Positions 1 through 55,394 of a stretch of DNA of 64,000 nucleotides are shown here, in pieces. Source of the stretch: Ereboglobus luteus (lineage in GTDB: Bacteria; Verrucomicrobiota; Verrucomicrobiia; Opitutales; Opitutaceae). The notes beneath the pieces are model-generated. The model did no database searches. It was given only the letters and a program-made list of their open reading frames with translations, and was not told where the DNA came from. The first letter of the stretch is position 1. The number at the start of each line of letters is the position of its first letter. Location: NCBI RefSeq assembly GCF_003096195.1, contig NZ_CP023004.1, positions 37,299 through 101,298 on the forward strand. Reading direction: 5' to 3'. The position numbers were made by a program, and so were the translations under genes.

Positions 1-2150
1 TCACCGCCTTCGCCGGCCAAGTTTACAGCATGTCGCGCGAAGACCTCATCCGCGCCGCGCGTCGCCACAAGATTCCCACAAACATCCCCTACGCGCAACT
101 CACCGAAAAACAACGCGAGTTTGTCATGCTCGGCGAACCCGAATATCGGAAACGCAAAACCCGCGGCGAGCAAATCGACTACGAAACCGACGACCTCTGG
201 TATGGATTGAAGGGCTTTTTCGAATGGCTCGAAAACAACACCTACAAAATGCACGTGCGCGTCTTCCTCTCGCGCTTTCGCGCCTACAATCCCTGCCCCG
301 CCTGCCACGGCCAGCGATTGCAACCCGACGCGCTCTGCTGGAAATGGCAAAAACGCACCATCCCCGAACTCTACACGCTCCCCGTCAGCGAGCTTCTCCC
401 GCTCGTTGAAAAGTCCACGATCTCCGACTCCGCCACATCCCTCGAAACGCACAGCGCCAAACTCGCGCGCGACAGCATCCTCACGCGCCTGCGCTACCTC
501 ATCCACGTCGGCCTCGGATACCTCACGCTCGACCGCCCCTCAAAAACGCTCTCCGGCGGCGAAGTCGAGCGCGTCAACCTCACCTCGTGCCTGGGCACCT
601 CGCTCGTCGACACCCTCTTCGTCCTCGACGAACCCAGTGTCGGCCTGCACCCGCGCGACATCGACCGACTCATCGCGATCATCCGCTCGCTCACCGACGC
701 CGGCAACACCGTCGTCGTTGTCGAGCACGACGAAACCATGATTCGCGCCGCCGACCACATCATCGAAGTCGGCCCCGAACCCGGCGCGCAAGGCGGCCAC
801 ATTGTATTCAGCGGACCACTACAAAAACTGCTCGCCGACAAAACAAGCATCACCGGCCGCTACCTCAGCGGACGCGAAACGATCCCCGCGCCACAAACCA
901 GAAGACCGGTGGAAAGCGACCAGAAGGTCAGAGGCCAGAGTGCCAGAGACCAGAATACTAGAGGCCAGAAATCCAGAAAAGCCGCGCCCAAATCTTCAGC
1001 ATCCGCATCATCCTCTGGCACTCTGGCTTCTGGCCTTCTGGCCGCTGGTATTCCGGCCTCCGCCTCCCTTCGCATCGAAGGCGCGTCCAAGCACAACATC
1101 CGCAACCTCTCCCTCTCCGTCCCACTCAACCGGCTCGTCTGCCTCAGCGGCGTTTCCGGCTCCGGCAAATCGACGCTCCTCGACAACATCATCTATCAAG
1201 GAATCCTCGTCTCGCGCCACCTGCTCGCCGAGGACCCCGCCGAAATCGCGCGCATCACCGGCGTCGATGCGTTTGGCGAAATCATCCTCGTCGACCAATC
1301 CCCGCTCAGCCGCACCCCGCGCTCCAACCCCGCGCTCTACAGCGAGGCATGGGAGCACATCCGCGACCTCTACGCATCCACCCCCGCCGCGCAAACGGCG
1401 GGCTTCACCGCGTCGAGCTTCTCGTTCAACAGCGGCGACGGACGCTGCGACCACTGCAACGGTCTCGGCTCCGAGCGCGTCGAAATGCAATTCCTCTCCG
1501 ACGTTTACGTCCCCTGCCCCATTTGCGAAGGCCGCCGTTTCAAACCCGAAGTCCTCGCAATCACATGGCGCGACCGCAGCATCCACGACCTCCTCAACAC
1601 AAGCATCGACGACGCGATCGCCCTCTTCGTTGACCACCCGCAAATCACCACCCGCCTCGCCCCCCTCGCCCAAGTCGGCCTCGGCTACCTCACCCTCGGC
1701 CAGCCGCTCAACACACTCAGCGGAGGCGAATCACAACGCCTGAAACTCGTCCGCCACCTGACGGCGCCAAACGCCGCAAATGTGGATTTCGGAATGCTGA
1801 ATGCGGAATTAAAAACCACCCAAGCCAACAAACCGCCGCTTGCGTCCGGCCGTTCCGCACTCCGCACTCCGCAATCCGCATTCAAACCCGCGCTGCTCCT
1901 GCTGGACGAACCCACCACCGGCCTCCACCGCCACGACGTCAAACGCCTGCTCGCCGTCCTGCACGCCCTCGTTGACCGAGGCCACAGCATCATCGTGATC
2001 GAGCACAACATCGATGTCCTCAAATCCGCCGACTGGATCATCGAAATCGGCCCCGAGGCCGGAGCCGACGGCGGCCGCATCGTCGCCGAAGGCACGCCCG
2101 AGCACCTCGCGCAAAGCAAAACCGAAACCGCGCCCTACCTGCTCGCTGCG
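1..2150 (+). CDS. uvrA: Excinuclease ABC subunit A (UvrA), 5'-truncated at the window edge: C-terminal ~700 aa (insertion domain, Zn finger, ABC signature I/Walker B, complete second ATPase module). Carries two in-frame palindromic-element insertions.
   Basis: Frame open from nt 3 (start of UvrA #1 lies upstream of the window). Motifs [95 protein letters not shown], all colinear with E. coli UvrA residues ~330-940. C-terminus at ..[11 protein letters not shown] (~2150). No stop codon; the frame continues into a linker. Confidence 0.85.
895..1052. repeat. Palindromic element with tandem-heptad arms ((G)GCCAGA(G) x~8 on the left, CTCTGGC-type on the right), inserted in-frame in uvrA (encodes ..[43 protein letters not shown]..).
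   Basis: Left CCAGAGTGCCAGAG is the exact reverse complement of right CTCTGGCACTCTGG; the insert falls between conserved UvrA blocks (E. coli KRKIEVPKK | LKLTGARGNNL). Confidence 0.6.
1778..1896. repeat. Palindromic element (GGAATGC heptad arms; core CCGCCGCTTGCGTCCGG) inserted in-frame in uvrA, just upstream of the second Walker B.
   Basis: Arms AATGTGGATTTCGGAATGCTGAATGCGGAATTAAAAACC / GTTCCGCACTCCGCACTCCGCAATCCGCATTCAAACCC; same family as 39207-39333 (shared CCGCCGCyTGCGTCCG core). Confidence 0.6.
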
Positions 2151-2151
2151 C

Positions 2152-2278
2152 TCGCAAATTCCAAATTCCAAAATCCCAAATTCCAAAAAAATCTCAAATC
2201 ACCAAAATCCAAATCTCAAAAAAACCAAACATCACTTCCCGCCGGGGATTCGCGTTCATTCGCGTCCATTCGCGGTTC
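2152..2278. repeat. Composite low-complexity linker between UvrA and the UvrA-like module, built from two arm types (CCAAATT/CCAAAAT heptads, then TTCGCGT/TTCATTCGCG repeats), translated in-frame.
   Basis: The same two arm types recur together at 49291-49482 and singly at 8099-8134. Confidence 0.45.
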
Positions 2279-2280
2279 AA

Positions 2281-4123
2281 CCCCCGCCTCGCTCAACATA
2301 ATCGGCGCGCGCGAAAACAACCTCAAAAACCTCTCCCTCGACATCCCGCACCACGGCCTCAACGTCGTCACCGGCGTCTCCGGCTCGGGCAAGTCCACGC
2401 TCGCGTTCGACATCGTTTTCGCCGAGGGCCAGCGCCGCTTCATGGAATCCATGTCGCCCTACGCGCGCCAGTTCGTCGAGCAACTCCCGCGCCCCGACAT
2501 CGACCTGCTCACCGGCATCCCGCCCACCGTCGCGATCGAGCAGCGCATCACGCGCGGCTCCCGCAAGTCCACCGTCGCCACCATCACCGAAGTCGCGCAA
2601 TACCTCCGCCTGCTCTACGCCCGCCTCGGCGTGCAGCACCACCCCGACACCGGCCGCCCCATTGTTCCGCTCACGCTCACGCAACTCCGCGCCCACCTCG
2701 CCAAAATCCTCGCCACCGACCCGCGCGCGAAGAAGGCAAAAAACTCTACCTCTGCGCCCCGCTCATCCGCGGACGCAAAGGCCACCACCAACCCATCGCC
2801 ACCTGGATCGAGAAACAAGGCTACACCCACATGCGCGCCGACGGAGACCTCTTCCCCGTCGAAAAATTCGAAAAACTCGACCGCTACAAAGAGCACAACA
2901 TCGAGGTGGTCGTGGCCGATTTGAAATCGGCCACGACCACCTCGAAGAGTGAAAAGCGAAGGGTGAAAAATGAAACACAAACCACTCAACCCACTCAACG
3001 TCCGCATCACTCGCCTGCGTCCGATTTTCACCCTTCACCCTTCACCCTTCACTCTTCCCTGGACGAGGCCCTCCGCCTCGGCCAGGGCTCCTGTTTCCTC
3101 CTCACAGGCGACAACAAAATCATCACCTGGCTCTCGACCACGCGCACCGATTCCGCCACGGGCGAGACATTCCCCGAACTCGATCCCAAGGACTTCTCGA
3201 TCAATTCCCCCCGCGGCTGGTGTCCCGCCTGTCGCGGACACGGGCGCATCTACCCTTGGATGCTCGCGCTCGACAAACAACAAAACGACACGCAGGAAAA
3301 CCGCGACATCGCGCTCCAACTCCGCGCCTACGGCATCTCCGACGCGGATGACATAAGCGACCACGGCCAGCCCTGCCCCGGATGCCACGGTGAACGCCTA
3401 AACCGCGTCGCGCGAGCAGTGCGCCTGCACTTTAGCGCCCCCGCCCCGATCGAAAAGAGTGAAGAGGGAAAGATGAAGAGTGAAAAGCAAGGCGCCAAAC
3501 GCCAGGCAACCAAACTCAAAGCCACTTCCGCTCCCTCTTTCACCCTTCACTCTTCACCCTTCAGCCTTTCCCTCCCCTCGCTCCTGCGCCTCACGCCGGG
3601 CGCGCTCCTCGCGCAACTTCGCCAGCTTGATCAAACCGACACCCGCACCCGCGCCATCACGCAGGACATCCTTCCGCAAATCGAGGAGCGCCTCCGATTC
3701 CTCGACCACGTCGGCCTCGGCTACCTCACGCTCGACCGCCCCACCGAAACGCTCAGCGGAGGCGAGTCGCAACGCATCCGCCTCGCCGCGCAACTCGGCA
3801 GCAACCTCAGCGGCGTGCTCTACGTGCTCGACGAACCTAGCATAGGATTGCACGCCCGCGACAACGACCGCCTGATCGAAACGCTCGAAACCCTCCGCGC
3901 CAAAGGCAACACGCTGCTCGTGGTCGAGCACGATGACGAACTCATGCGCCACGCCGACCGCATCATTGACCTTGGTCCCGCGGCGGGCATCCACGGCGGC
4001 GAGCTCCTTGCCAGCGGCACGCCGGAGGAAATCCGCCAAACCCCCTCCTCCATCACCGGTCTCTTCCTCAAAAAAGGCATCAAGCACCCCCTCCGCGGCG
4101 CCTACCGCCCGCTCCCGGCATGA
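2281..4123 (+). CDS. UvrA-like N-terminal ATPase module (Walker A, Zn fingers, signature I, Walker B) fused in-frame to the upstream uvrA through a low-complexity linker. Reading frame is broken by a -1 indel in an A6 run (2738-2743) and resumes in the +2 frame to the stop at 4123. Contains two in-frame palindromic-element insertions.
   Basis: [48 protein letters not shown] aligns to the E. coli UvrA N-terminus; no ATG/GTG/TTG start between 2150 and 2290. [24 protein letters not shown] then continues as [16 protein letters not shown] only in the other frame (needs A7, observed A6). Downstream [48 protein letters not shown]; ends at the equivalent of E. coli residue ~600. Confidence 0.6.
2905..2940. 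repeat. Perfect 14-bp-stem palindrome GTGGTCGTGGCCGAT-TTGAAA-TCGGCCACGACCAC inside the UvrA-like module, directly 5' of element 2944-3057.
   Basis: The left arm is native coding sequence (EVVVADL); the right arm is its exact inverted copy. Confidence 0.5.
2944..3057. repeat. Palindromic element, GAAGAGT/GAAGGGT-arm subfamily (core AAATGAAACACAAACCACTCAACCC..CGCCTGCGTCCGA), inserted in-frame in the UvrA-like module.
   Basis: Arms GAAGAGTGAAAAGCGAAGGGTGAAAAA / TTTTCACCCTTCACCCTTCACCCTTCACTCTTC; insert of ~44 aa between EVVVADL and [10 protein letters not shown]. Confidence 0.7.
3452..3566. repeat. Palindromic element, same subfamily as 2944-3057, second in-frame insertion in the UvrA-like module.
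   Basis: Arms GAAAAGAGTGAAGAGGGAAAGATGAAGAGTGAAAAGC / CTCTTTCACCCTTCACTCTTCACCCTTCAG; ~37 aa insert between VRLHF and [10 protein letters not shown]. Confidence 0.7.
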
Positions 4124-33927: not shown

Positions 33928-35838
33928 ATGTCCGATAAACTCACGCACGAGTGCGGCATCGCGCTCATCCGACTCAAAAAACCGCTCTCGTATTACCAAA
34001 ACAAATACGGCACGCCGCTCTGGGGCTTCACAAAACTGTTTCTCCTCATGGAAAAGCAGCACAACCGCGGCCAGGACGGCGCGGGCGTCGCCGCCGTGAA
34101 GCTCGACATGCCCCCGGGCGAGCAATACATGTTCCGCGACCGCTGCGTGGAGGCCAACCCCCTCGACCGCGTCTTCAAGCGCATTTGGAGCGACTACAAC
34201 CAGAAGGTCGCCGAAGGCACCATCCACCCCGAGTTCGCCGACACCGTCAAAAAGAACTTCGACTTCGGCGCCGAGCTCTACATGGGCCACCTGCGCTACG
34301 GCACCAGCGGCGGCTACAGCCTCAGCTCCTGCCACCCCTTCTACCGCCGCAGCCCATGGCAAACCCGCAACCTCGCCCTCTGCGGAAACTTCAACATGAC
34401 CAACACCGCGGAGCTGAACCAAAGCCTCATCACCATGGGCCAGCATCCGATCTTCGCCACCGACACCCAGGCCATCCTTGAGCGCATCGGCTTCTTCCTC
34501 GACGAGGAACACGAGGACATCTACCGCTACCTGCGCACCCGCGGCCTCTCCGGCGAGGAAATGTCCCGCCGAATCAGCGAGGATCTCGACCTCACCCGCG
34601 TCATCACCAAGGCCGCCCAGCAATGGGACGGCGCCTACTCCCTCTGCGGACTCATCGGCAACGGCGACGCCTTTGTCACGCGCGACCCATCCGGCATCCG
34701 CCCCTGCTTCTGGTATCAGGACGACGAAGTCGTCGCCTTCGCCTCCGAACGCGCCCCGCTCATGACCGTGTTCGACGCCGCCATCGAGCAAGTCCAGGAA
34801 GTCACCCCCGGCCACGTCATCGTCATCAAGCGCCGCGGCACCATCACCGACACGCAAGTCACCACGCCCCTCCCCCGCGCCGCGTGCTCCTTCGAGCGCA
34901 TCTATTTCTCGCGCGGCAACGACCAGGACATCTACTCCGAGCGCAAGGCCCTCGGCGGCCAGCTCGCCGACCAAGTCCTCGACGCCACCAACCACGAATG
35001 GGGCAACACCATCATCAGCTTCATCCCCAACACCTCCGAAATCGCCTACTTCGGCCTCCTCCACTCCCTGCGCGAGCGCCGCCGCGACGAAGTCAAAAAA
35101 ATCCTCCTCGAGGCGCAGAATGAAAACCGCCTCACCGAAAACCTCCTCGACGAAGTGATCCTGCGCAACTGGCCGCGCGGCGAAAAAATCGTCAGCAAGG
35201 ACATCAAGCTGCGCACCTTCATCGGGCAGGAATCCACCCGCAACCAGCTCGCCAGCCACGTTTACGACATCACCTACGGCACCATCCGCCCCGGCATCGA
35301 CAACCTCGTGTGCGTTGACGACTCCATCGTGCGCGGCACCACGCTCCGCAAATCGATCCTGCGCATGCTCGCCCGCCTCCAGCCCAAGCGCATCGTGATC
35401 GCCTCCACCGCGCCGCAAATCCGCTACCCCGACTGCTACGGCATCGACATGTCCGAGCTCGGCAAACTCATCGCCTTCGAAGCCGCCATCTCGCTCATCA
35501 AGGAACGCGGCCAGACTCCGCTCCTGCAGGAAGTCTACCAACTCTGCCGCGACGAAGTCGCCCGCAACGGCACGGTCAATCACGTCGCAAAAATCTACGA
35601 CGGCTTCACGCCGGAGGAAATCTCCGCGCGCATCGCCGAACTCGTCCGCCCCCGCAAACTCGACTGGAAGGGCGAGCTCAGCGTGATCTTCCAGACGATC
35701 GAAAACCTGCACAAGGCGGTTCCCAACCACACCGGCGACTGGTATTTCTCGGGCAACTACCCCACCCCCGGCGGCTACCGCATCGTCAACCAAGCCTACG
35801 TGAACTACTACGAAAAATCCGAGGGCAGAAGCTATTAA
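33928..35838 (+). CDS. purF: Amidophosphoribosyltransferase (class II glutamine amidotransferase, long Bacteroidetes-type).
   Basis: N-terminal nucleophile ..THECGIALIRL, Ntn hydrolase domain, PRTase region; 636 aa. Confidence 0.8.
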   Translation: MSDKLTHECGIALIRLKKPLSYYQNKYGTPLWGFTKLFLLMEKQHNRGQDGAGVAAVKLDMPPGEQYMFRDRCVEANPLDRVFKRIWSDYNQKVAEGTIHPEFADTVKKNFDFGAELYMGHLRYGTSGGYSLSSCHPFYRRSPWQTRNLALCGNFNMTNTAELNQSLITMGQHPIFATDTQAILERIGFFLDEEHEDIYRYLRTRGLSGEEMSRRISEDLDLTRVITKAAQQWDGAYSLCGLIGNGDAFVTRDPSGIRPCFWYQDDEVVAFASERAPLMTVFDAAIEQVQEVTPGHVIVIKRRGTITDTQVTTPLPRAACSFERIYFSRGNDQDIYSERKALGGQLADQVLDATNHEWGNTIISFIPNTSEIAYFGLLHSLRERRRDEVKKILLEAQNENRLTENLLDEVILRNWPRGEKIVSKDIKLRTFIGQESTRNQLASHVYDITYGTIRPGIDNLVCVDDSIVRGTTLRKSILRMLARLQPKRIVIASTAPQIRYPDCYGIDMSELGKLIAFEAAISLIKERGQTPLLQEVYQLCRDEVARNGTVNHVAKIYDGFTPEEISARIAELVRPRKLDWKGELSVIFQTIENLHKAVPNHTGDWYFSGNYPTPGGYRIVNQAYVNYYEKSEGRSY

Positions 35839-36016
35839 AAAGTGGAAAGTAAAAAGTAGGAATTAGAAAGTGGCCTCGACAAACCAGAAGGCAACTGACG
35901 GCTTGCGAATCGACCGCCTCCAAACCCGCATTCTAAAAATCTCCTGCTTGCAGACGCCGCCCGGTGCCTGATTCTTTACTTTTTAATTTCTAATTTCTAC
36001 TTCTTACTTTTCCACC
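35837..36016. repeat. Palindromic element (AGTGGAA/AGTAAAA/AGTAGGA heptad arms) filling the purF to purM-like intergenic region; the right arm ends at the ATG.
   Basis: TTAAAAAGTGGAAAGTAAAAAGTAGGAATTAGAAAGTGG ... CTTTACTTTTTAATTTCTAATTTCTACTTCTTACTTTTCCACC|ATG. Confidence 0.65.
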
Positions 36017-37798: not shown

Positions 37799-39013
37799 TT
37801 GTTGTATAACAACAAACAATCACACATGCCGCCGCCGCTCAAAGAACGTCCCTCCAGCCTGCTCGAAGCAGCGCCGCCGTCGCGCCGCAAATCGCGCTAC
37901 GCGCTGCTCGAAACCGGGGACCCTGCGGATCGCCGCCGCACCATCGGCCTCGGCATTGTGCTCACCATCGGAGTCTGGCTCCTCTGCCTTTTCCTGTTCA
38001 ACCTGCTCATCACCCACCTCGACCGCCAGCACACCAGCAACACCGGCGACATCGCCACCCCGAAACCCACTTTCGACATCGAGCTCCAGCCCGAGGAGTT
38101 TCTCCTCCCCAAGCCGCCTCCCCCGCCCCCGCAAAACTTCGTCGAAACCAATCCCGACGCCCCCGAAAACATTCCCGACAAAACCGACAACTTCGGCGCG
38201 CACAACCAGCAGGCCGCGCAGGAAACGCCCACCCCCGGAGGCAAAAGCGACCGCCCCGCAATCGAGGGTCAGGACGAAATCGACTCCACTCAAATTGTTG
38301 ATGGCGATCTCCGCCAGCAACCCATCATCATCCCCCCGCCCCCGCCGCCCACGCCCGAACTCAAGGAGTCGAGCAGCGTCACCGAAGTCACTCCCGCCCA
38401 GCGCGAGCAAAACCCGCTCTCCGGCGAGCAGAAAATTCAGGGCGACAGCGAAACCGGCTACGGAATGAATGAATACAAACTTCCCGAAGTGCTGAAAGAC
38501 ATCACACCCGACGCCACCGAGCGCACCGAAGGCCTCCCCGACGCCCCGCTCATCACCGGTGTCCCCCAAACCACACAACCCCAAATCGACCCCAAGCGCC
38601 CGCAACCCCGCATCACGCTCAACCGGCAAAAAGTTCGTCCCGCAATTTTTAAGGAAAACAAATTCGGCACCCAAAACATCGGCGCCATGGCCTACGACGC
38701 CAAATGGAGCAACTACGGCCAGTATCTCCAAAAGTTGATCGACACCGTCCAAATCCAATTTGAGGACCTCAATGAAAAAAGCCGCTTCTGGCCGCCCACC
38801 GGCACGAAGGTCACCGTCCGCTTCATTCTCGATTCCGAAGGCAAGATCGCTGAAATCGTCGAGGCCGACGGCAACGGTGGCAGTCAGGCCACAAACATCT
38901 GCATGAGCGCGATCACCGACCGCGCGCCCTACGGCAAATGGACCGACGACATGATCGCCATCCTCGGCGAGAAACAGGAAATGACCTTCACCTTCTACTA
39001 CGGCAGGCCGTGA
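37799..39013 (+). CDS. TonB-like protein: N-terminal TM anchor, proline-rich spacer, C-terminal TonB-type domain.
   Basis: TM IGLGIVLTIGVWLLCLFLF; PPPPPP tracts; C-terminal GTKVTVRFILDSEGKIAEIVE. Confidence 0.6.
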   Translation: MLYNNKQSHMPPPLKERPSSLLEAAPPSRRKSRYALLETGDPADRRRTIGLGIVLTIGVWLLCLFLFNLLITHLDRQHTSNTGDIATPKPTFDIELQPEEFLLPKPPPPPPQNFVETNPDAPENIPDKTDNFGAHNQQAAQETPTPGGKSDRPAIEGQDEIDSTQIVDGDLRQQPIIIPPPPPPTPELKESSSVTEVTPAQREQNPLSGEQKIQGDSETGYGMNEYKLPEVLKDITPDATERTEGLPDAPLITGVPQTTQPQIDPKRPQPRITLNRQKVRPAIFKENKFGTQNIGAMAYDAKWSNYGQYLQKLIDTVQIQFEDLNEKSRFWPPTGTKVTVRFILDSEGKIAEIVEADGNGGSQATNICMSAITDRAPYGKWTDDMIAILGEKQEMTFTFYYGRP

Positions 39014-39900
39014 GCGAAATCCCGGGCCCAATCGACGACTACTGGCAAACACTCCCCCTCGGGCGCGGCGTGGCCGTCATCACCCGCGATCCCAACGGCC
39101 TCGTCGCCCTCAACAAACCCGCGGGCACCCTCTCCCACCCCAACGAATCCCGCGACCAGCCCCGTTCGCTCCTCAACGCCCCCTATGAACCCGACGGCGA
39201 ATATTATATGTGGAATGCGGAATGCGGAATGCGGATTTCGGAATTGCAAACCGACAAAACTGATCATGCCACTCGCCCGCCGCCTGCGTCCGATCATTCC
39301 GCATTCCAAAATCCGCATTCCACATTCAAAGAGGAATCCCGCCGACTCTGGCTGCTCAACCGCCTTGATTCCGCCACCTCCGGCGTGATCCTTGCCGCGA
39401 CCACGGAAGAACTCGCGCGCGAAATCCGCGCGCTCTTTCGCGAACGCCACATCAGCAAAACCTACGCCGCGCTCGTCTTCGGCAGCCCCTCCGAAAAAAC
39501 GCAACTCTGGCGCGACCGGCTCGCCGTGCAAAAACGCGGAGGCCAAATCCGCGCCGCCGCCCGGGCCGGAAACATCCCCGCCGAGGCGCGCATGAGCCTT
39601 CTGCGCACCAGCCGCAACACCCCCGCCGCAGCAGGCGCACCCATTTCGCTCATCCAGCTCGAACCCAAGACCGGACGCAGCCACCAGCTCCGGGTGCAAT
39701 GCGCCAGGCGCCGTCTTCCCATCATCGGCGACGCCACTTACGGCGATTTTCGAGCCAACCGCGACTTCGCCAAACGCACACGCGAAAAACGCCTATTTCT
39801 CCATTCGCTCGAAACCCGCTTCGACTACACCCACGCCGGACGCGCGTTCACCTTCGCCGCCAAGGCTGACCTCCCTGGGGCGTTCACCGCGCATCTTTGA
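39010..39900 (+). CDS. RluA-family pseudouridine synthase (GTG start overlapping the upstream stop, GTGA) carrying an in-frame palindromic-element insertion (39207-39333).
   Basis: LNKPAGTLSHP..RLDSATSGVILAA..catalytic Asp in LNRLD; PsiRSP-like C-terminus. Inserted ~42 aa (YYMWNAECGMRISELQTDKTD..HSTFKEES) lies in the loop before the HRLD motif. Confidence 0.8.
   Translation: MSEIPGPIDDYWQTLPLGRGVAVITRDPNGLVALNKPAGTLSHPNESRDQPRSLLNAPYEPDGEYYMWNAECGMRISELQTDKTDHATRPPPASDHSAFQNPHSTFKEESRRLWLLNRLDSATSGVILAATTEELAREIRALFRERHISKTYAALVFGSPSEKTQLWRDRLAVQKRGGQIRAAARAGNIPAEARMSLLRTSRNTPAAAGAPISLIQLEPKTGRSHQLRVQCARRRLPIIGDATYGDFRANRDFAKRTREKRLFLHSLETRFDYTHAGRAFTFAAKADLPGAFTAHL
39207..39333. repeat. Palindromic element (GGAATGC heptad arms; core ..CACTCGCCCGCCGCCTGCGTCCGATC) inserted in-frame in the RluA-family gene.
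   Basis: TGGAATGCGGAATGCGGAATGCGGATTTCGGAATTGCAAA ... ATTCCGCATTCCAAAATCCGCATTCCACATTCAAAG; the core shares CGCCTGCGTCCGAT with element 2944-3057. Confidence 0.7.
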
Positions 39901-40000: not shown

Positions 40001-40192
40001 ATGCAAAAGACAAAAAAGTCCGTTGCCAAACGATTCAAGGTGTCCGCCAAGGGCAAATTGATCTATCGTTCGCCAGGCACTCGCCACATCGCGAGCACCA
40101 AGTCCTCCAAGCAGAAACGCCGCTTGGGCAAGGCCAAGGCTCTCTCCGAGACCCACACGCCTCCGCTCCTGCGTTGCCTGCCCCACGCCTAA
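40001..40192 (+). CDS. rpmI: 50S ribosomal protein L35.
   Basis: MQKTKKSVAKRFKVSAKGKLIYRSPGTRH. Confidence 0.85.
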   Translation: MQKTKKSVAKRFKVSAKGKLIYRSPGTRHIASTKSSKQKRRLGKAKALSETHTPPLLRCLPHA

Positions 40193-40294: not shown

Positions 40295-40681
40295 ATGGCT
40301 CGTGTCAAAAACTCCCCCGCGTCGCGCAAGCGCCGCAAGAACATGCTGAAGCATGCCAAAGGCTACTTCGGCAACAAATCGAAGCTCTATCGCTACGCGA
40401 AAGAAGCCGTCCATCACGCCTGGCAATACGCCTACCGTGACCGCCGCAAAAAGAAGGCCGAGTTCCGCGCCCTCTGGATCGTGCGCATCAGCGCCGCCTG
40501 CCGCGAGGCCGGCATCAGCTACAACCGCTTCATCGAAGGTCTCAACGCCGCCGGCGTCGCCCTCGATCGCAAGGTCCTCTCCGACCTCGCAATCCGCGAC
40601 GAAGCGGCCTTTACCGCCCTGGTCAAACAAGCCCAGGACGCGTTGAAGAAAAAAGCCGAGGCCAAAAAGGCCGCGGCCTAA
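40295..40681 (+). CDS. rplT: 50S ribosomal protein L20.
   Basis: MARVKNSPASRKRRKNMLKHAKGYFG..YRDRRKKK. Confidence 0.95.
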   Translation: MARVKNSPASRKRRKNMLKHAKGYFGNKSKLYRYAKEAVHHAWQYAYRDRRKKKAEFRALWIVRISAACREAGISYNRFIEGLNAAGVALDRKVLSDLAIRDEAAFTALVKQAQDALKKKAEAKKAAA

Positions 40682-40733
40682 AAGCTTAAACGCGAGCCCG
40701 GACGCGGCTCGCCTCTCATTTTCAGAAATCATC

Positions 40734-40779
40734 AGAGGACGGGCCTCGTTCGAGCGAGGTGCCGTCCTCTTTGCTTTTG
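40734..40779 (+). terminator. Rho-independent terminator after rplT, immediately upstream of the inserted GxxExxY cassette.
   Basis: AGAGGACGG..CCGTCCTCT followed by TTGCTTTTG. Confidence 0.75.
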
Positions 40780-40792
40780 AAACATTCCTCTT

Positions 40793-41229
40793 GGGACAGA
40801 ATGAACAAAATTAAAAAAATGGGAGAGACTCCAAGCTACGATTTGGCCGGCCAAATCATAGGGCTCGCCATGAAAGTTCATTCAACGCTCGGCGGCGGAT
40901 TTCTCGAATCTGTTTATCAAAACGCGCTCGCCTTTGAACTGACTCGAGCAGGCATGGCTTTCCAAACAAGCGTCCCCCTCAAGGTGAAATACGAAGGCGC
41001 AATTGTCGGTGAGTTCGAAGCCGACATGCTCATCGCCAATACGCTCATTATCGAAAACAAAGCCGTCCAAACCCTCGCCGTCGCCCATGAGGTTCAACTT
41101 GTCAATTATCTTACCGCCACCGGCATCAACGAAGGACTTCTTCTCAATTTCGGCGCGGAAAAACTCCAGTTCAAAAAGAAATTCCGCACATACCGGGCCG
41201 CCGGCCCCAATTGATCTTCATTCTGTTCC
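40793..41229 (+). mobile_element. GxxExxY gene cassette bounded by 12-bp inverted repeats (GGGACAGAATGA ... TCATTCTGTTCC, 11/12 match), inserted between rplT and pheS.
   Basis: The IR-L includes the gene's ATG; it lies downstream of the rplT terminator and upstream of the pheS start. Confidence 0.4.
40801..41214 (+). CDS. GxxExxY family protein (PD-(D/E)XK superfamily) inserted between rplT and pheS.
   Basis: GGGFLESVYQNAL (GxxExxY), E..D..K core ..EFEADMLIANTLIIENK; homologous to the 53343-53726 gene. Confidence 0.75.
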   Translation: MNKIKKMGETPSYDLAGQIIGLAMKVHSTLGGGFLESVYQNALAFELTRAGMAFQTSVPLKVKYEGAIVGEFEADMLIANTLIIENKAVQTLAVAHEVQLVNYLTATGINEGLLLNFGAEKLQFKKKFRTYRAAGPN

Positions 41230-41271
41230 ATTCCGTTAATTCTGTCTAAAAACACTTCCCAAAATTTCCAC

Positions 41272-42315
41272 ATGCAAGACCAACTCAAAGCCCTGCTCGA
41301 CAAAGCCCGCACCGAACTCTCCGCGACAAAGATCCGCGCCGACTTCGAGGCCGCGAAAGCCCGTTACGTCGGCCCCAACGGCTCGCTCACCGCGTTCATG
41401 AAACAAATGGGCAGCCTGCCCAAGGAGCAAAAACCCATCGTCGGCAAGCTCATCAACGAGGCCAAGACCACCCTCACCGGCCTCCTCGAAAACGCGCTCC
41501 GCGCCATCGAGTCCAACGAGCTCGCCGCGCAACTCGGCCCCGAAATCGACCCCACCCTCCCCTCGCCCGACGCCCTCGCCGGCACCTATCATCCCCTCAC
41601 GCTCGTGCGCGAGGAAATGTGCCGCATCCTCGCAAAGGCCGGGTTCAACGTCGTCGAGGGTCCCGAGGTCGAAACCGAATTCTACTGCTTCGACGCGCTC
41701 AACACACCCGCCGACCATCCGGCCCGCAACGAGCAGGACACGTTCTATTTCCCCGCCGCCACGCGCTTCGGCAACGTCTCGCGCAAGGTCGCCGACGAAA
41801 AATACCTCCTCCGCACGCACACCTCCTCCGTGCAAATCCGCACGATGCTCAAGGGCCCGCCGCCCATCCGCATCGTCTCGCCCGGGCGCGTTTACCGTCG
41901 CGACACCACCGACGCCACGCACTCCGCCAACTTTCACCAACTCGAGTGCCTCTACGTCGACAAAAACGTCACCGTTCGCGACCTCAAGGCGCTCCTCGAT
42001 TACATCTTCGCCTCGCTCCTCGGCAAGGACACCAAGACCCGTTTCCGCCCGCACTATTTCGGCTACACCGAGCCCAGTTTCGAAGTCGATCTCAGCGCAA
42101 GGCACCTCCCCAAGGTGAACAAGGAATGGATCGAAATCGGCGGCTGCGGCATGGTCGATCCGACCGTCTTCGACGCCGTCGGCTACGACTCAAGCGTCTG
42201 GACCGGCTACGCCTTCGGCATGGGCCTCGAACGCCTCGCCATGCTCCTCTACGGCATCGACGACATCCGCTACTTCTACCAAAACGACCTGCGCTTCCTC
42301 AGGCAATTCGCCTGA
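41272..42315 (+). CDS. pheS: Phenylalanine--tRNA ligase alpha subunit.
   Basis: Class II aaRS motifs (FNVVEGPEVE..FDALN, RTHTSSVQIR, GMGLERLAML). Confidence 0.95.
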   Translation: MQDQLKALLDKARTELSATKIRADFEAAKARYVGPNGSLTAFMKQMGSLPKEQKPIVGKLINEAKTTLTGLLENALRAIESNELAAQLGPEIDPTLPSPDALAGTYHPLTLVREEMCRILAKAGFNVVEGPEVETEFYCFDALNTPADHPARNEQDTFYFPAATRFGNVSRKVADEKYLLRTHTSSVQIRTMLKGPPPIRIVSPGRVYRRDTTDATHSANFHQLECLYVDKNVTVRDLKALLDYIFASLLGKDTKTRFRPHYFGYTEPSFEVDLSARHLPKVNKEWIEIGGCGMVDPTVFDAVGYDSSVWTGYAFGMGLERLAMLLYGIDDIRYFYQNDLRFLRQFA

Positions 42316-42320
42316 CGGAA

Positions 42321-42497
42321 AGCAGTGAGCGGCGGGTAGCGAGTAGTGAGTAGAAAAAATCACCGCTCGCCCCGCTCGCAACCAACCTTAAAAATTTTCA
42401 CAACCATCACACCATCCTCCCACCACCATGCGGGCGCAGCCCGCCACTGACATCCTACTCGCTACCCGCTACTCACTACTCGCTACTTTTTCTTCCT
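42321..42497. repeat. Palindromic element (AGTGAGC/AGCGAGT/AGTGAGT heptad arms) filling the pheS-pheT intergenic region; the right arm ends 3 nt before the pheT ATG.
   Basis: GCAGTGAGCGGCGGGTAGCGAGTAGTGAGTAGAAAAAA ... CTACTCGCTACCCGCTACTCACTACTCGCTACTTTTTCTTCC. Confidence 0.65.
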
Positions 42498-42500
42498 CCC

Positions 42501-44996
42501 ATGAAAATCTCCCTCTCCTGGCTCAACGACTACGTCGATCTCTCCGGCATCGCCACCGACGAAATCTCCCGCGCCATCACCTTTCTCGGCCTTGAAGTCG
42601 AGGAGGTCATCAACACCGGCGCGCCCCAGTTCAACAACGTCGTTGTCGGGCGCATCCTCACACGCGACAAACACCCCAACGCCGACAAGCTCTCCCTCTG
42701 CACCGTCGATGTCGGCCCCGCCGGCGGCGTGAAGACAATCGTCTGCGGCGCGCCCAACTGCGACGCGGGCAACCTCGTTCCCGTCGCGCTCCCCGGCGCC
42801 ATCCTCCCCGGCAATTTCGAAATCAAACAATCCAAAATCCGCGGCCAGTCCTCCGACGGCATGATGTGCTCGTCCAAGGAACTCGCGCTCGAGGGCGGCG
42901 ACCACGCCGGCCTCATGATCCTCGCCACCCCCGCGACGGAAACCCCGCCCGCCCTCGGCACTCCCATCAACGACATTCTTCCCCCGGGCGACATCGTTTT
43001 CGACATCGAAGTCACACCCAACCGCCCCGACTGCCTCAGCCACATCGGCATCGCGCGCGAACTCTCCGCGTGGTTCAAAAAACCGCTCCGGTATCCGGAA
43101 ATCAAATACGATCCGCGCAACACACGCGCCCCCTTTGCCGCCTTCGCCGCGCGCCCCGACCTGCTCGAATCCATCCGCGTCGACGCGCCCGAGATGTGCC
43201 CGCTCTACACCGCCACCGTCATCACCGGCATCAAGATCGGCCCCAGCCCCGAGTGGATGCAACGCCGTCTCCTCGCCGCGGGCATGCGCCCGATCAGCAA
43301 CATCGTCGACATCTCCAATTACGTGATGCTCGAATACGGCCAGCCCACGCACGCCTTCGACGCGAAAAAAATCGGCGGGCACAAACTCATCATCCGCCCG
43401 GCCAACGAGGGTGAAAAAATCATCACCCTCGACGAAAAGGAGCGCGCGCTCAGCAGTCGCATGCTCGTCATCGCCGACGCCGAGAAACCGCTCGTCATCG
43501 CCGGTGTCATGGGCGGCGAAAACTCGGGCATCGACGACACCACGACCGACATCATTCTCGAGGCCGCCAGTTTCGCGCGCAGCCTCATCCGCTGGACATC
43601 GCGCCGCCTCGGACTCTCCTCCGACTCATCCTACCGTTACGAACGCGGCGTCGATCCGCACATGCTCGACGAAGCCACGCGCCGCGCCATCTCGCTCATC
43701 CTTGAGCTCTGCGGCGGGCAAGTCGCCGGCGCCACGCACAAGGCCGGGGGCGACGTCCCCTGGCAACGCGAGGTTCAAGTCACCGCGTCCTTTGTGAACG
43801 AACGCGTCGGCTTCGAAATCCCCGTCGCCGAGCAACGCGCCGCGCTCGAGGCGCTCGAGCTTCGAATCACACGCGAGGATAAAAACGCCCCCGGCGGCCC
43901 CGCATGGACGGTTGCCATCCCGAGCTGGCGCAACGACCTCGACCGTCCCATCGACCTCGTCGAGGACGTCCTTCGTGTTTACGGCACGGAAAAAATCCCC
44001 CCCGCGCCCGTGCTCGCGCCGACGATCATCGGCAACGACGCCCCCATCGTGCTCTTCAACCGCGAAGTTTCCGCATACCTTGTCGGCCAGGGTTTCAACG
44101 AATGCGTGAACTACACGCTGCGCTCCAAGCGCGAAGTCGAGACGTGGGTTTCACAAGCCGCCGGGGCCGAGCTTGCGCTCCTTAATCCCTTCACCGAGGA
44201 CCAGTCGCACCTTCGCCCCACCCTCGTGCTCGGACTCCTCGAAACGCTCAAACTCAACCAATCGCGTGGCGTGCCGACGGCGCGCCTCTTTGAAACCGGG
44301 CGTGTCTTCATCGAGCGCGACGGACAAAACTTCGAGTGTGTTTCGGTCGCCTTCATCATTGCCGAAAACGACCTCGACCGCGCCTGGCTCAAGCGCGAGC
44401 CCGCCGACTTCTACACGACAAAACGCCTCGTCGAAACCCTCGCCGGCATCGGCGGCATCGACATTGCCCGCCAGCCCGTGAAAGCGCCCGGCGGTTCGTT
44501 CTTCGGATGGCAGGAAGGCCAGTCCGCCATCATCGGCGACATCGCCCACGGCTGGACCGCGCGCCTCGGCCTGATCAACCTCGCCATGGTTCGCAGCCTC
44601 GGCATCGAGGGCAAGGTCTACGGCGGCACGCTCTCGATTCTCTCCGAGCGCGTCAAAACCGTCTCCGACCGCCGCCGCTATCAACCCATCACGATGCACC
44701 CCGCCGCGCTCCGCGACATCGCGCTCGTGGTCGATGAAAAGCTCCCCGCCGGCGACGCGCAAAAAACACTGGCCAAGCACGCCCGCGCCACGCTGCCGAA
44801 AACCTTTGCGCTCGAAGCCGCGAACATCTTCGACGTCTACCAAGGCAAGGGCCTGCCCGAGGGCAAAAAAAGCCTCGCGTTCAGCCTCGTCTATCGCGCC
44901 CCCGACCGCACCCTCACCGACGACGAAGTCAACACCGCCTTCGCCAAGCTTCAGGAAATCCTCGCCAAGGAAACCGACTGGCAGATCAGAAAGTAG
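42501..44996 (+). CDS. pheT: Phenylalanine--tRNA ligase beta subunit.
   Basis: MKISLSWLNDYVDL; tRNA-binding, B3/4, B5, FDX-ACB domains; 831 aa. Confidence 0.95.
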   Translation: MKISLSWLNDYVDLSGIATDEISRAITFLGLEVEEVINTGAPQFNNVVVGRILTRDKHPNADKLSLCTVDVGPAGGVKTIVCGAPNCDAGNLVPVALPGAILPGNFEIKQSKIRGQSSDGMMCSSKELALEGGDHAGLMILATPATETPPALGTPINDILPPGDIVFDIEVTPNRPDCLSHIGIARELSAWFKKPLRYPEIKYDPRNTRAPFAAFAARPDLLESIRVDAPEMCPLYTATVITGIKIGPSPEWMQRRLLAAGMRPISNIVDISNYVMLEYGQPTHAFDAKKIGGHKLIIRPANEGEKIITLDEKERALSSRMLVIADAEKPLVIAGVMGGENSGIDDTTTDIILEAASFARSLIRWTSRRLGLSSDSSYRYERGVDPHMLDEATRRAISLILELCGGQVAGATHKAGGDVPWQREVQVTASFVNERVGFEIPVAEQRAALEALELRITREDKNAPGGPAWTVAIPSWRNDLDRPIDLVEDVLRVYGTEKIPPAPVLAPTIIGNDAPIVLFNREVSAYLVGQGFNECVNYTLRSKREVETWVSQAAGAELALLNPFTEDQSHLRPTLVLGLLETLKLNQSRGVPTARLFETGRVFIERDGQNFECVSVAFIIAENDLDRAWLKREPADFYTTKRLVETLAGIGGIDIARQPVKAPGGSFFGWQEGQSAIIGDIAHGWTARLGLINLAMVRSLGIEGKVYGGTLSILSERVKTVSDRRRYQPITMHPAALRDIALVVDEKLPAGDAQKTLAKHARATLPKTFALEAANIFDVYQGKGLPEGKKSLAFSLVYRAPDRTLTDDEVNTAFAKLQEILAKETDWQIRK

Positions 44997-49290: not shown

Positions 49291-49482
49291 GTTCGTATTT
49301 TGGATTTTGTATTCTCGATTTTGGATTGATGAACCACGGAAGATAATTCGAGAGGGTATTGATGGTTTCCGGGTTTTGTTTTTTAACCGCGAATGGACGC
49401 TAAAGGACGCGAATAAATACAAATGAAACACGGGTCGAAAATCGGCCTGTTATTCGCGTCTATTCGCGTTCGTTCGCGGTTC
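49291..49482. repeat. Composite element in the rpsO-pnp intergenic/pnp leader: CCAAAAT-heptad arm abutting the pnp ATG (49291-49328), plus a palindrome with CGCGAAT-type arms and core AAATGAAACACGGG (49387-49482).
   Basis: CCGCGAATGGACGCTAAAGGACGCGAATAAATAC-AAATGAAACAC..-TTATTCGCGTCTATTCGCGTTCGTTCGCGGTTC; both arm types are also found in the uvrA linker 2152-2278. Confidence 0.55.
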
Positions 49483-49694
49483 TAAATCTCTGACTGGTTT
49501 TTATTATGGGCAAAAACTCGCGGACAATGGTGTTCGCGTTGCTTTTGCCGGGAGGTGTCTTTTTTGCATCCTCGTTCAGTGTTCGAGAGATTTCCGTTTG
49601 GCGCCTGCGCTGTTTTTTGCGGCGGAAGAGACAAGCGGAAATGTCCCGGAATCTGTGGCGAGTGTCGTTGGCTGCGCGGGGCAGTTAAGACAAC

Positions 49695-50384: not shown

Positions 50385-51821
50385 TCACTTTGCGATCAGC
50401 TTTATCAGCGCGGCGCGGTCGGTTTTGCCGCGCTGGGTGAGCGGGAATGCCGGCAGCACAACAATGCGGTCGGGGATTTTCCACGCGGCGAGACGCGGGG
50501 TGAGCTGGCGGCGGATGTCGGCGGCGGTCGGCGAGGGCGCGTCGCTGGCGACGGCGGCGGCGATGGCGTCGGGGCGCGTTGGATGCGCGGCGACAAAGGC
50601 TTCGCGCACACCGGGCAGGGCGCGGAGCATCGTTTCCACTTCGCCGGGGTCGAGACGGCGGCCCGCGATTTTCAGCGTGCGTCCGGCACGGCCAAGCAGG
50701 GTGAGTTCGCCGGCAGGGTTGAATTCACCGCGATCGGGCGGCGAATAGCGTCCGCGTCCGTGGACAGAGGGGCTTTCGACGGTGAAGCGTTTGCCGCGGC
50801 GGAAGGTGATGCGCACGCCGTCGATGAGTTGCCCGATGGCGCGGCCAGTTTCCGCGGCGTCGCCTTTGCGGTCGTAGGCGATGCCGCCGGTTTCGCTGGT
50901 GCCGTAGAAATTGTGGACGTGTTTGCCGTATTTGTTTGCGAAAGCGAGCGCGTCGGCGGGCTGGAGCGGCGCGCCGGCGGAAATGACGAGGCGCAGGCTG
51001 GCGAGCGCGGCGGGCGAAACGTCGGTGCTTGAGAGCGCGCGCAGGAGCGTGGGCACGGCGGGAAAAACGGTCGGTTTCCAACGGGCGCAATCGGCGGCGA
51101 TGGATTGCGGAAACGGGCTGGCGGCGCTGAGGAGGGGCGTGCCTTGTTCGAGGAGCGGAATGACGAGGTGGCCGAGTCCGTAGGAGTGCCCGAAGGGGAT
51201 GATGCCAAGGTTGAGGTCGCCGGGGCTGATGCGCATGGTTGCGCAAATCTGGCGTCCGTCGGCGAGCATTTGCGTGTGGGTGAAAACGAGCGCCTTGGGA
51301 ACGCCGGTGCTGCCGCTGGTGAGTTTGATGAGCAATTCGTCGCGGCGTCGAACGGGCGGGCGAGGCGCGAGCAGGGTGAGTTCACCGTCGCGCAAGATCG
51401 AGGCAGCGCGGCTGACGTCGGCAATGGCGGCAAGGCGGTCGGGTGTTTCCTTGGAGTCGGCGAGCGCGGGGACAGCACCGATTTCGAGCAGACCGAGGAA
51501 GATGTAAAACCAGCGCGCGCTGTTCGGCTCGGCCATGACCACGCGGCGACGCGTGATGTGCGCGCGGGTGTCGGTGGGAAGTGAATCGAGCCAGACACGT
51601 GCGGCGGCGGCGAGTTCAGCGCGACTCCAGACGCGCGCGGTGTCGCCGTCGATGACGGCGGTGGCGGATGGCGATTGCGCGACAAGTGCGCGCCAGGTGG
51701 CGAGGAGGTTTGTTGGGTAGGGCGAAACCTCCGGCTGAGCCGATTGCTTTTTCGCGTTCGGTGACAATTCCGGCTCAGCCGGAGGCTTCGCCCTACCTTT
51801 GGTATCGCCGACCGGAGCCAT
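50385..51821 (-). CDS. AMP-dependent synthetase/ligase (acyl-/aryl-CoA ligase family); start ATG overlaps the gatB stop (TAATG). Its 5' end contains a GGTAGGGCGAA-family hairpin in-frame.
   Basis: AMP-binding motifs LTSGSTGVPKA, YGTSETGG, ..GDxxxxxxDG..; 478 aa. Confidence 0.75.
   Translation of the reverse strand: MAPVGDTKGRAKPPAEPELSPNAKKQSAQPEVSPYPTNLLATWRALVAQSPSATAVIDGDTARVWSRAELAAAARVWLDSLPTDTRAHITRRRVVMAEPNSARWFYIFLGLLEIGAVPALADSKETPDRLAAIADVSRAASILRDGELTLLAPRPPVRRRDELLIKLTSGSTGVPKALVFTHTQMLADGRQICATMRISPGDLNLGIIPFGHSYGLGHLVIPLLEQGTPLLSAASPFPQSIAADCARWKPTVFPAVPTLLRALSSTDVSPAALASLRLVISAGAPLQPADALAFANKYGKHVHNFYGTSETGGIAYDRKGDAAETGRAIGQLIDGVRITFRRGKRFTVESPSVHGRGRYSPPDRGEFNPAGELTLLGRAGRTLKIAGRRLDPGEVETMLRALPGVREAFVAAHPTRPDAIAAAVASDAPSPTAADIRRQLTPRLAAWKIPDRIVVLPAFPLTQRGKTDRAALIKLIAK
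51715..51797. repeat. REP-like hairpin, variant GGGTAGGGCGAAACCTCCGGCTGAGCCG-loop-CGGCTCAGCCGGAGGCTTCGCCCTACC, lying within the 5' coding region of the AMP-ligase gene (translated in-frame).
   Basis: Same conserved termini as copies 12266 and 18630; the stem interior differs on both sides so pairing is kept. Confidence 0.6.
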
Positions 51822-53290: not shown

Positions 53291-53311
53291 TTTTTTGGAA
53301 AAATTCTTTTT

Positions 53312-53792: not shown

Positions 53793-53796
53793 TAAA

Positions 53797-55380: not shown

Positions 55381-55394
55381 TCTTTCTGAGTGAG

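Follow-up and report, generated by a model that had tools for sequence, protein, structure and literature searches.

A GxxExxY gene between inverted repeat arrays in the rplT-pheS spacer of Ereboglobus luteus, a candidate for an undescribed kind of small-gene cassette

REPIN-RAYT systems consist of doublets of repetitive extragenic palindromic (REP) sequences and of a cognate, vertically inherited Y1 transposase gene. The Correia elements of Neisseria are miniature inverted-repeat transposable elements (MITEs) that are co-transcribed with operons. Transposon ends with multiple binding sites are found in Tn7 and in the subterminal repeats of the plant elements En/Spm or Ac. In T-even phages, free-standing homing endonuclease genes are located between conserved genes. 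The element compared here with these systems is a small cassette carrying a GxxExxY gene, located between rplT and pheS in a 64-kb stretch of DNA from Ereboglobus luteus (Opitutaceae, Verrucomicrobiota); this whole stretch is called the window and all coordinates refer to it. The comparison extends to the intervening sequences (IVS) of 23S rRNA that bear an open reading frame (ORF): that of Coxiella is reported to have been acquired horizontally and then maintained vertically, with decay of its ORF (PMC4990558). The heptamer repeats of Beggiatoa and cyanobacteria are described as direct and not inverted (PMC4679880).

The cassette is best read as a compact, sense-oriented small-gene element with clade-specific repeat-array ends, residing in intercistronic spacers, a reading to which a probability of roughly 55% is given. 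This kind of cassette is apparently widespread and undescribed. The searchable literature on the GxxExxY (PF13366) and PF05635 families holds passing mentions only, and the cassette architecture is not described in it.

The rplT-pheS cassette, its arms and its gene

The strongest evidence that the cassette is a discrete, exchangeable unit is its exact replacement in Ereboglobus sp. PH5-10. PH5-10 and the window are collinear over 9 kb, with 97-98.8% identity and two breaks only. At the first break, positions 40786-41260 of the window (475 nt) are replaced in PH5-10 by an unrelated empty palindrome of 152 nt with TTTTCGA-type arms. At the second, positions 42316-42494 are replaced by 89 unrelated nt. 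Upstream of the cassette, identity is 100% over ~180 nt up to the boundary, thus there is no co-conversion tract. The match resumes 11 nt before the pheS ATG, i.e., at the 3' edge of the cassette, and pheS itself has 13 mismatches in 1055 nt, none of them clustered at the boundary. The proposal that the gene and its inverted repeats form one cassette is borne out by this exact swap and by the arms common to the orthologues. The features of the locus are:

40001-40192, rpmI (L35), from Pfam
40295-40681, rplT (L20), from Pfam
40692-40712, + strand, first terminator-like hairpin after rplT, GCGAGCC-loop-GGCTCGC followed by the T-run CTCTCATTTT
40737-40785, + strand, second and longer hairpin after rplT, GGACGGGCCTCG..CGAGGTGCCGTCC with a T-rich tail
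40786-41260, + strand, whole cassette unit, 475 nt, the segment exchanged in PH5-10
40791-40821, + strand, left arm, decayed, three 9-nt units ACAGAATGA (40796), ACAAAATTA (40805) and AAAAAATGG (40814)
40801-41214, + strand, GxxExxY / PDDEXK_3 gene between rplT and pheS, from Pfam and NCBIfam
41219-41250, + strand, right arm, units (T)CATTCTGT (41218), CATTCCGT (41229) and AATTCTGT (41238), then CTAAAAA (41246)
41272-42315, pheS, from Pfam
42501-44996, pheT, from Pfam

The hairpin at 40692-40712 is identical in PH5-10 and kept in relatives, i.e., it is host sequence outside the cassette. The hairpin at 40737-40785 is conserved across Opitutaceae, in nearly all loci examined, and its 3' end is the left boundary of the swappable segment (the PH5-10 BLAST match stops at 40785). 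Because these conserved rplT hairpins precede the cassette, its description as splitting the rpmI-rplT-pheST operon was overstated: the cassette lies downstream of both and not in a tight junction. The GC content is 0.47-0.51 in the cassette vs. 0.62-0.67 in the flanks. A promoter scan, which is a weak test for Verrucomicrobia, found no sigma-70-like promoter of sense orientation either within the cassette or upstream of it. The Rfam search of the whole window at gathering thresholds gave a single tRNA and no rRNA.

The inverted repeat of the original prediction is a pair of 12-mers, GGGACAGAATGA at 40793-40804, which covers the ATG at 40801, and TCATTCTGTTCC at 41218-41229. Their sequences, coordinates, 11/12 complementarity and overlap with the ATG are all confirmed. 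With the repeat finder the pair grows to 14 nt, of which 13 are complementary (40792-40805 / 41217-41230), the lone mismatch being a G opposite a T. The score of this repeat is reached by 0.1% of the shuffles and by 0.5% of the positions of the same geometry in the window, several of which are real elements. With a null pooled from all loci, the repeat of the window cassette has p ~0.012. As the end of the cassette, the 12-mer was right in its pairing and wrong in its register, since it opposes the outermost left unit to the innermost right unit of three-unit arrays of 9-10 nt. In the outer-to-outer register (40791-40821 / 41219-41250), 23 of 31 positions are complementary.

The left arm holds the left 12-mer and overlaps both candidate starts (40801 and 40819); the right arm holds the right 12-mer and is present likewise in orthologues and metagenome copies. 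Orthologous left arms read TTTAGACAGAATGAACARAATNNACARAATG. The closest homologues, all from metagenomes and all between L20 and PheS, are 87, 81 and 73% identical. Their left flank is TTTAGACAGAATGAACARAATTAACAGAATG and their right flank TTCATTCTGTCCATTCTGTTCATTCTGTCTAAAAA, i.e., inverted arrays with three units of 9 nt each, the start codon being provided by the left one. The outer ends of the cassette arrays are TTTTTAG... and ...CTAAAAA. Judged from these orthologous sequences, the 12/14-bp repeat of the window is a decayed remnant of ~31-nt arms, each made of three 9-nt ACAGAATGA-type units. The predicted RNA fold of the window cassette, in its minimum free energy as in its centroid structure, is closed by the 14-bp repeat, with a z of -1.0, i.e., no better than shuffles. 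The window contains one copy of the ACAGAATGA type. Since its gene is intact and its arms are eroded (good pairing over 14 bp, 23/31 overall), this copy is probably long-resident, vertically inherited and no longer very mobile.

The ORF 40801-41214 encodes 137 aa; the NCBI start at the in-frame ATG 40819 gives 131 aa (40819-41211). The ORF matches PF13366 (E 4.7e-37, 127.4 bits for a cut-off of 22) and TIGR04256 GxxExxY (E 4.7e-39, 133.3 bits for a cut-off of 35), and its protein is already annotated at NCBI as 'GxxExxY protein' (100% identity). A second small ORF of the window (53343-53726) is also far above both curated cut-offs. The GxxExxY motif of the rplT-pheS protein is GGGFLESVY. Among 79 homologues E30, D69 and K81 are invariant and E79 is nearly so; all four are kept in the window protein (E..D..ExK). 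The AlphaFold2 model has a predicted local distance difference test (pLDDT) score of 91.6, and the fold predicted from this model and from fold comparison is Cas4/RecB-like, i.e., restriction-endonuclease-like alpha/beta. A sequence search of the PDB gave no match for the GxxExxY protein, fold comparison alone being informative. Its family, its active-site residues and its predicted fold designate the protein as a putative minimal Cas4/RecB-like PD-(D/E)XK nuclease. No transposase family was matched by the cassette ORF in Pfam or NCBIfam, nor in PADLOC or PHROGs, and the last two gave nothing for GxxExxY.

The ratio dN/dS between the window gene and its orthologues is 0.08-0.21 at dS 0.8-1.5. 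It follows that the gene, as judged from these substitution rates, is under purifying selection and functional, and that the non-coding arm motif is kept where neutral sites are saturated. The insertion is not recent, the gene being found at the same position in genera with saturated synonymous sites. The GC content at third codon positions (GC3) of the cargo is lower than that of the neighbouring housekeeping gene in 29/29 cassettes (window and loci L001-L103), with a mean difference of -0.18, and still tracks host GC. Low cassette GC was considered as a proof of recent transfer and rejected, since cargo GC3 tracks host GC and the orthologues are at saturated dS.

Relatives, other sites and empty palindromes

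A PheS-based scan gave 80 Opitutaceae genomes, with ~650 kb of loci in which all GxxExxY and four-helix-bundle genes are located within the rplT-pheS or the pheS-pheT spacer. In the rplT-pheS spacer, the clade of the window protein encoded there is found with strong ACAGAATGA arms in a scattered minority of genomes. Synteny had been proposed as a check of the cassette, and the relatives that have the gene at this position do have inverted repeats, better preserved than those of the window. In the pheS-pheT spacer, the cargo of relatives is either (i) a different GxxExxY clade with AACGAAGG/GAACAGAAG arms or (ii) a protein of 119-133 aa of the PF05635/TIGR02436 family ('23S rRNA IVS / four helix bundle'). 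The PF05635 cargo is bracketed in most loci by GTAGCGA/GTAGTGA heptads, i.e., those of an empty palindrome located in the same spacer of the window. The only match of this four-helix-bundle cargo in the PHROGs and PADLOC scan is Avd of diversity-generating retroelements (DGRs). The palindrome and its homologues are:

42321-42487, + strand, empty palindrome between pheS and pheT, arms 42321-42353 / 42455-42487 made of GTAGCGA/GTAGTGA heptads, loop of ~100 nt
L016, L020, L021, L027 and L043, filled homologues of this palindrome; L068 and L008, filled homologues with divergent arms
L025 and L076, empty homologues of this palindrome

The predicted RNA fold of the window palindrome 42321-42487 has a z of -6.4. 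This palindrome, already noticed in the original prediction, is real and of the same element class as the cassette; it is the empty form of the four-helix-bundle cassette of relatives. Directly after its right arm (42455-42500 region) comes TTTTTCTT, which gives it a terminator-like polarity in the sense direction, immediately 5' of the essential gene pheT; in most other elements the polarity is reversed (T-run 5', A-run 3').

Nearly all the other Opitutaceae genomes of the 80 have some empty repeat-arm palindrome in both spacers. Its unit motifs vary widely (CACAGAG, CACGGAT, CACTAAT, CGCGGAT, CGCAAAG, TTCTCGT and others), and at both spacers many (L006-L084) have AACC...GGTT ends. It was also observed that the six units of one element change together between genomes, and that even strains 97-99% identical differ completely. 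In some relatives an empty copy lies directly 5' of a full cassette and keeps the first codons of that cassette.

The presence of GxxExxY genes is patchy on the PheS tree. Since cargo divergence tracks PheS divergence (Spearman rho 0.78), the cassette appears to have been inherited vertically for the most part, to have been lost many times and to have been relocated or transferred in some cases. Termitidicoccus is an exception to this tracking (64% identity for PheS vs. 70% for the cargo).

The clade of the rplT-pheS gene, with its ACAGAATGA arms, is also found at other sites: (i) in the pheS-pheT spacer of Termitidicoccus; (ii) beside RHS-type genes in a metagenome-assembled genome annotated as Lentisphaerae (72% identity); (iii) in numerous contigs of soil metagenomes, where it lies between cdsA and dxr (63-71% identity). 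CACGGAG units are found at gatA-gatB in the window, in L099 and L103, and in a DGR locus of Geminisphaera. CACAGAG units are found in Bacteroidota copies grouped with the CACGGAG clade, from Bacteroides (between radA and a flavin adenine dinucleotide (FAD) protein gene) and Bernardetia (ade-manC). The Sphingomonas copy lies between fabD and fabG. One 12-bp end shared by all GxxExxY copies, which had been expected, is not found: the units are of the ACAGAATGA type here, CACGGAG at gatA-gatB and of the AACGAAGG type in a third clade. A preference limited to translation or highly expressed operons is not supported either, the copies being also located at the cdsA-dxr, fabD-fabG, radA-FAD protein, ade-manC, DGR and RHS loci. 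What the sites have in common is that the spacer follows a gene of the same strand; in most cases it separates two co-transcribed housekeeping genes. At every site examined the cargo has the orientation of the upstream gene, and the downstream gene is co-oriented wherever readable, except at the Lentisphaerae site (convergent). Flank repeats reach p<0.01 in 26/34 cassettes of four clades under a conservative null. Across these loci the arrays prove specific to the protein clade and accompany the gene wherever it has moved, at unrelated loci and in unrelated phyla.

The second GxxExxY gene of the window has the same architecture as the first, i.e., a gene within inverted repeat arms, as had been predicted. 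It belongs to the order gatC, gatA, small ORF (53343-53726) and gatB (Pfam) on the opposite strand:

53308-53796, - strand, second GxxExxY cassette, between gatA and gatB, coding sequence 53343-53726, 35-nt arms 53762-53796 and 53308-53342
55286-55381, - strand, empty palindrome between gatC and gatA, CACGGAG/TTAACC arms as in the gatA-gatB cassette, 34-nt loop

The arms of the gatA-gatB cassette are made of CACGGAG units with TTAACC ends, and its predicted RNA fold is closed through these arms (z -3.7). Orthologous gatA-gatB cassettes are found in L099-L103. In Geminisphaera colitermitum (L096-L098, 2501-2884) the CACGGAG-type GxxExxY gene of the DGR locus lies between two copies of an empty palindrome. 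The order of this locus is FGE-sulfatase target gene, GxxExxY, bAvd and reverse transcriptase; the other type of cassette cargo is an Avd homologue.

The ACAGAATGA arm pattern gave >120 metagenome matches, from which 80 loci were retrieved and classed: the gene is complete in 22 and internally deleted in 11, and the other 47 are cargo-less. In one example of internal deletion, profile positions 1-62 are joined to 115-133. The 80 loci form 41 flank clusters, with cargo copies in 4 of them and cargo-less copies in at least 36; one cdsA-dxr cluster accounts for 28 of the cargo copies. Internal deletions are graded between full and empty copies, therefore at least many of the empty ones would derive from cassettes and not the reverse. 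As read from these loci, the cassettes decay by internal deletion to cargo-less palindromes, whose dispersal is far wider than that of the copies with cargo. Nested palindromes are also observed (L111, 630-790; L115, ~1800-1932), a CACGGAA-unit palindrome being located in the loop of a ACAGAATGA-unit palindrome. They suggest that loops are insertion targets.

Repeat-arm palindromes occur about once per 5 kb of the window. The UvrA-like frames (30..2924 and 2831..4123) hold palindromes at 915-1046, 1779-1880, 2155-2279, 2944-3057 and 3455-3562, with the units CCAGAGG, AATGCGG, CAAATTC/AAATCCCA and TTCACCC. They are translated in frame as low-complexity peptide inserts and are reminiscent of the Rickettsia palindromic elements. 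The UvrA-like gene shifts frame at ~2700-2945 (where the two ORFs overlap), beside a perfect 22-nt hairpin (2901-2945); a frameshift, a pseudogene, a sequencing error or a programmed event could account for this change. A palindrome of GAATGCG heptads (39199-39327) lies in frame in an RluA-like pseudouridine synthase gene (38938..39900), at residues 88-130. The Pfam match of this gene covers 202 residues for a profile of 150 positions, and the insert is also found in PH5-10. In the comparison with orthologues synteny is not kept, PH5-10 alone having the gene, with the palindrome. Intergenic palindromes are located at 5843-5974, 35836-35999 and 49297-49486, with the units GAAGAGTG/TTCACCC, TAAAAAG/TTTCTAA, and ATTTTGG plus CGCGAAT. 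The GC-rich perfect hairpins GGGCGAACCGTC(T/A)CGGTGAGCCG at 12270-12324, 18634-18691 and 51716-51797 form a family unrelated to the tandem-unit palindromes.

Favoured reading and rival explanations

According to the favoured reading, the segment 40786-41260 would be a promoterless nuclease ORF of ~0.4 kb flanked on both sides by inverted arrays in which a unit of 7-10 nt is repeated three to four times. These arrays would serve as ends with several recognition sites for a protein, and the simplest candidate for this protein is the encoded nuclease. The nuclease would act both in cis and in trans on the arm ends (duplex, hairpin or cruciform DNA), and by its action elements of intercistronic spacers would be inserted, replaced or maintained. 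The gene would be expressed via read-through from the host operon, and the arms may pair in the transcript too. Such is the mechanism of mobility that we infer.

The first rival explanation is tentative but deserves attention, being moreover compatible with the favoured reading. It states that the cassette is an IVS-like RNA element: the arms pair in the transcript and RNase III cuts the stem, which frees the cassette RNA and separates the cistrons, the DNA history being secondary. The sister cassettes at pheS-pheT carry indeed PF05635/TIGR02436 proteins, i.e., the family of the ORF of the Leptospira and Coxiella 23S IVS. The Coxiella IVS (428 nt) bears an ORF and is excised by RNase III (PMC4990558). 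The predicted RNA folds close each cassette through its arms, with z -6.4 for the empty palindrome; all cassettes are sense-oriented and a promoter is undetected; the lone mismatch of the 14-bp repeat of the window is a G:U pair. If the stem works in RNA, an enrichment in sense-strand G:U pairs is expected in the arms. It is absent in the 43 cassettes considered, with 39 sense-wobble and 48 antisense-wobble mismatches and 79 transversions vs. 1055 matches, and in an earlier subset of 20 cassettes (19 sense-wobble vs. 33 antisense-wobble). The duplex energies, if anything, favour the antisense strand; little weight is given to this slight difference, the duplexes having run into unrelated flanks. 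The window cassette folds no better than its shuffles (z -1.0), and removal by RNase III of the copies that lie in frame in coding sequences would destroy the mRNA. The unit sequence is kept across phyla, which is needless for a mere stem. Since there is no G:U bias, since transversions are as common as transitions and since the unit sequence is kept across phyla, the arms look more like protein recognition ends than like a stem used for pairing only. An RNA role of the arms is compatible with these data, although the sequence statistics lend it no support.

It is unlikely that the palindromes are host regulatory hairpins, similar to REP or bacterial interspersed mosaic elements (BIMEs), that tune mRNA stability or uncouple cistrons, the genes having landed in or been captured by their loops and persisting neutrally or domesticated. 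Such hairpins would account for the palindromes of any unit motif present in both spacers of nearly every one of the 80 Opitutaceae genomes and for the loops used as insertion targets in nested palindromes. Most arms, with their T-run 5' and A-run 3', are not intrinsic terminators in either direction, which also fits this explanation. Nevertheless, arm motif and cargo clade go together, also where the cargo has moved to unrelated sites and phyla, and graded internal deletions link full to empty cassettes. Moreover, the motif at an orthologous site changes wholesale between strains 97-99% identical, unlike a conserved regulatory site, and copies are also found in frame inside coding sequences.

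A free-standing homing endonuclease gene would cut the spacer devoid of cassette, and repair via the conserved flanking genes would copy the cassette in, which would explain its residence among housekeeping genes. The putative nuclease gene with intact active-site residues, the recurrence of each clade at the same conserved intergenic site across genera with a patchy presence, and the cargo decoupled once from its host (Termitidicoccus, PheS 64% vs. cargo 70%) are in line with homing. This explanation is nonetheless improbable: (i) a co-conversion tract is absent, the rplT-side flank being 100% identical over ~180 nt and pheS showing background divergence (13 mismatches in 1055 nt); (ii) the same clade is found with its arms at unrelated sites; (iii) cargo-less arms dispersed over at least 36 sites are unexpected; (iv) the four-helix-bundle cargo has no nuclease; (v) the predicted fold is Cas4/RecB-like and of no known homing endonuclease family, the Foldseek match to I-Bth0305I having an E of 0.09.

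A chance inverted repeat beside an ordinary conserved gene, which the several imperfect inverted repeats of 10-13 nt arising by chance in a 2-kb region and the weak arms and fold of the window copy (p ~0.012, z only -1.0) might suggest, is refuted by the stronger arms of the same motif around every orthologue, by the motif that accompanies the gene at other loci, by the exact segment missing in PH5-10 and by the flank-repeat statistics.

Several points weigh against the favoured reading itself. The PH5-10 site is not cleanly empty and holds a different palindrome, so that a replacement by an unknown route is possible. No unambiguous target-site duplication was found by eye in ~40 elements; TA/TTAA are inseparable from the palindromic ends (TTTAG...CTAAA, TTAACC...GGTTAA), and several copies are without them. 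Many palindromes of the window have unit motifs that match no cargo gene seen here. The history is mostly vertical (rho 0.78) and the patchy distribution could be mainly due to loss, and the low cargo GC3 could mean low expression rather than horizontal flux. Transposition, cleavage and binding by GxxExxY proteins are activities that we infer from sequence, and to our knowledge GxxExxY is not a known family of transposases or homing endonucleases. Sister cassettes carry a non-nuclease cargo (Avd-like four-helix bundle), i.e., the cargo need not be the mobility enzyme. Finally, unit lengths of 7-10 nt argue against a single simple protein-DNA geometry. Confidence in the favoured reading is moderate because of this non-nuclease cargo type, of the want of an unambiguous target-site duplication and of an activity that is predicted only.

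A broader proposal, rather doubtful at present, is that GxxExxY nucleases and their clade-specific arms would constitute an unrecognised class of autonomous mobile element, in which the minimal nuclease would recognise the arrays of 7-10-nt units and bring about insertion or replacement in spacers and even in frame in genes. Its non-autonomous progeny would be the abundant empty palindromes seen in Opitutaceae and in other phyla, and the ORF-containing 23S rRNA IVS would be a special case with four-helix-bundle cargo.

Comparison with known systems

GxxExxY (PF13366) and '23S rRNA IVS protein' (PF05635) are very large multi-paralog families without established function, found here as cargo of the same kind of cassette. 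Both gain a genomic logic and a testable hypothesis, i.e., that the protein recognises its own arms. The ORF-bearing rRNA intervening sequences are linked to a far larger set of elements that reside in mRNA operons, and an origin is offered for the intergenic palindromes of Opitutaceae, which are dense and hypervariable. Should the nuclease be the enzyme of mobility, the cassette would be a new minimal type of mobile element and potentially a sequence-programmable DNA tool. Otherwise, the cassettes remain a striking case of selfish genes residing inside essential operons without breaking them.

The 23S rRNA IVS with an ORF resembles the cassette as a sense insert of ~0.4-0.5 kb in a highly conserved and highly transcribed unit, with inverted repeats able to form a stem around the small ORF; as in the pheS-pheT sister cassettes, its protein is a PF05635 (S23p) four-helix bundle. 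In contrast, the cassette is located in an mRNA spacer (rplT-pheS) and not in rRNA helix 25 or 45, its cargo is a PF13366 PD-(D/E)XK protein and not S23p/PF05635, and its arms are clade-specific arrays of tandem 7-10-nt units whose mismatch spectrum has no RNA signature.

REPIN-RAYT, compared by description, also has a single-copy enzyme gene flanked by cognate palindromic repeats that are dispersed without the gene as well. Its gene is likewise largely vertical, with different repeat motifs for different gene clades. However, the enzyme of the cassette is of the PD-(D/E)XK type and not a Y1 (HUH) transposase of the IS200/IS605 type. The arms are tandem-unit arrays and not a GTAG-headed hairpin, the cassettes are sense-oriented in operons, and a second, non-enzymatic cargo exists.

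MITEs and Correia elements share with the cassette a short length, terminal inverted repeats, an intergenic location, derivatives by internal deletion and a hairpin in the mRNA, and TA/TTAA-like ends are frequent in them as in the CAC-type arms. Multiple dispersed copies with cargo-less derivatives (47/80 loci for the cassette) are also known from MITEs and insertion sequences. Unlike MITEs and Correia elements, the cassette has no recognisable transposase, its ends are multi-unit arrays, and the copies of the window differ in motif and do not form one family.

As in the cassette, each end of Tn7, En/Spm and Ac carries an array, inverted relative to the other, in which a short motif is repeated three to four times; in the cassette the sequence of this motif is kept, with an arm-to-arm complementarity of only ~86%. 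They are however of kilobase size with dedicated transposases, whereas the present element has 0.1-0.5 kb and encodes only a putative nuclease of 130 aa or a four-helix bundle. The homing genes of T-even phages are similar to the cassette as small nuclease genes between highly conserved genes, with a patchy presence in close relatives; the cassette differs from them by its flanking arrays, its cargo-less derivatives, its unrelated sites and the lack of a co-conversion tract. Integron cassettes with attC sites have small promoterless ORFs in one orientation and an imperfect palindrome of variable sequence, and attC-like ends (...AAC / GTT...) are present in the CAC-type arms. Unlike in integrons, the halves of the palindrome lie on both sides of the ORF and are made of tandem units; no integrase or cassette array is found in the window, and the RYYYAAC / GTTRRRY cores are inconsistent.

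The element thus misses at least one defining feature of each of the IVS, REPIN-RAYT, the co-transcribed MITE and the homing gene. It is a palindromic or IVS-like selfish cassette, and there is a substantial chance that a nuclease with its arms represents a new type of mobile element.

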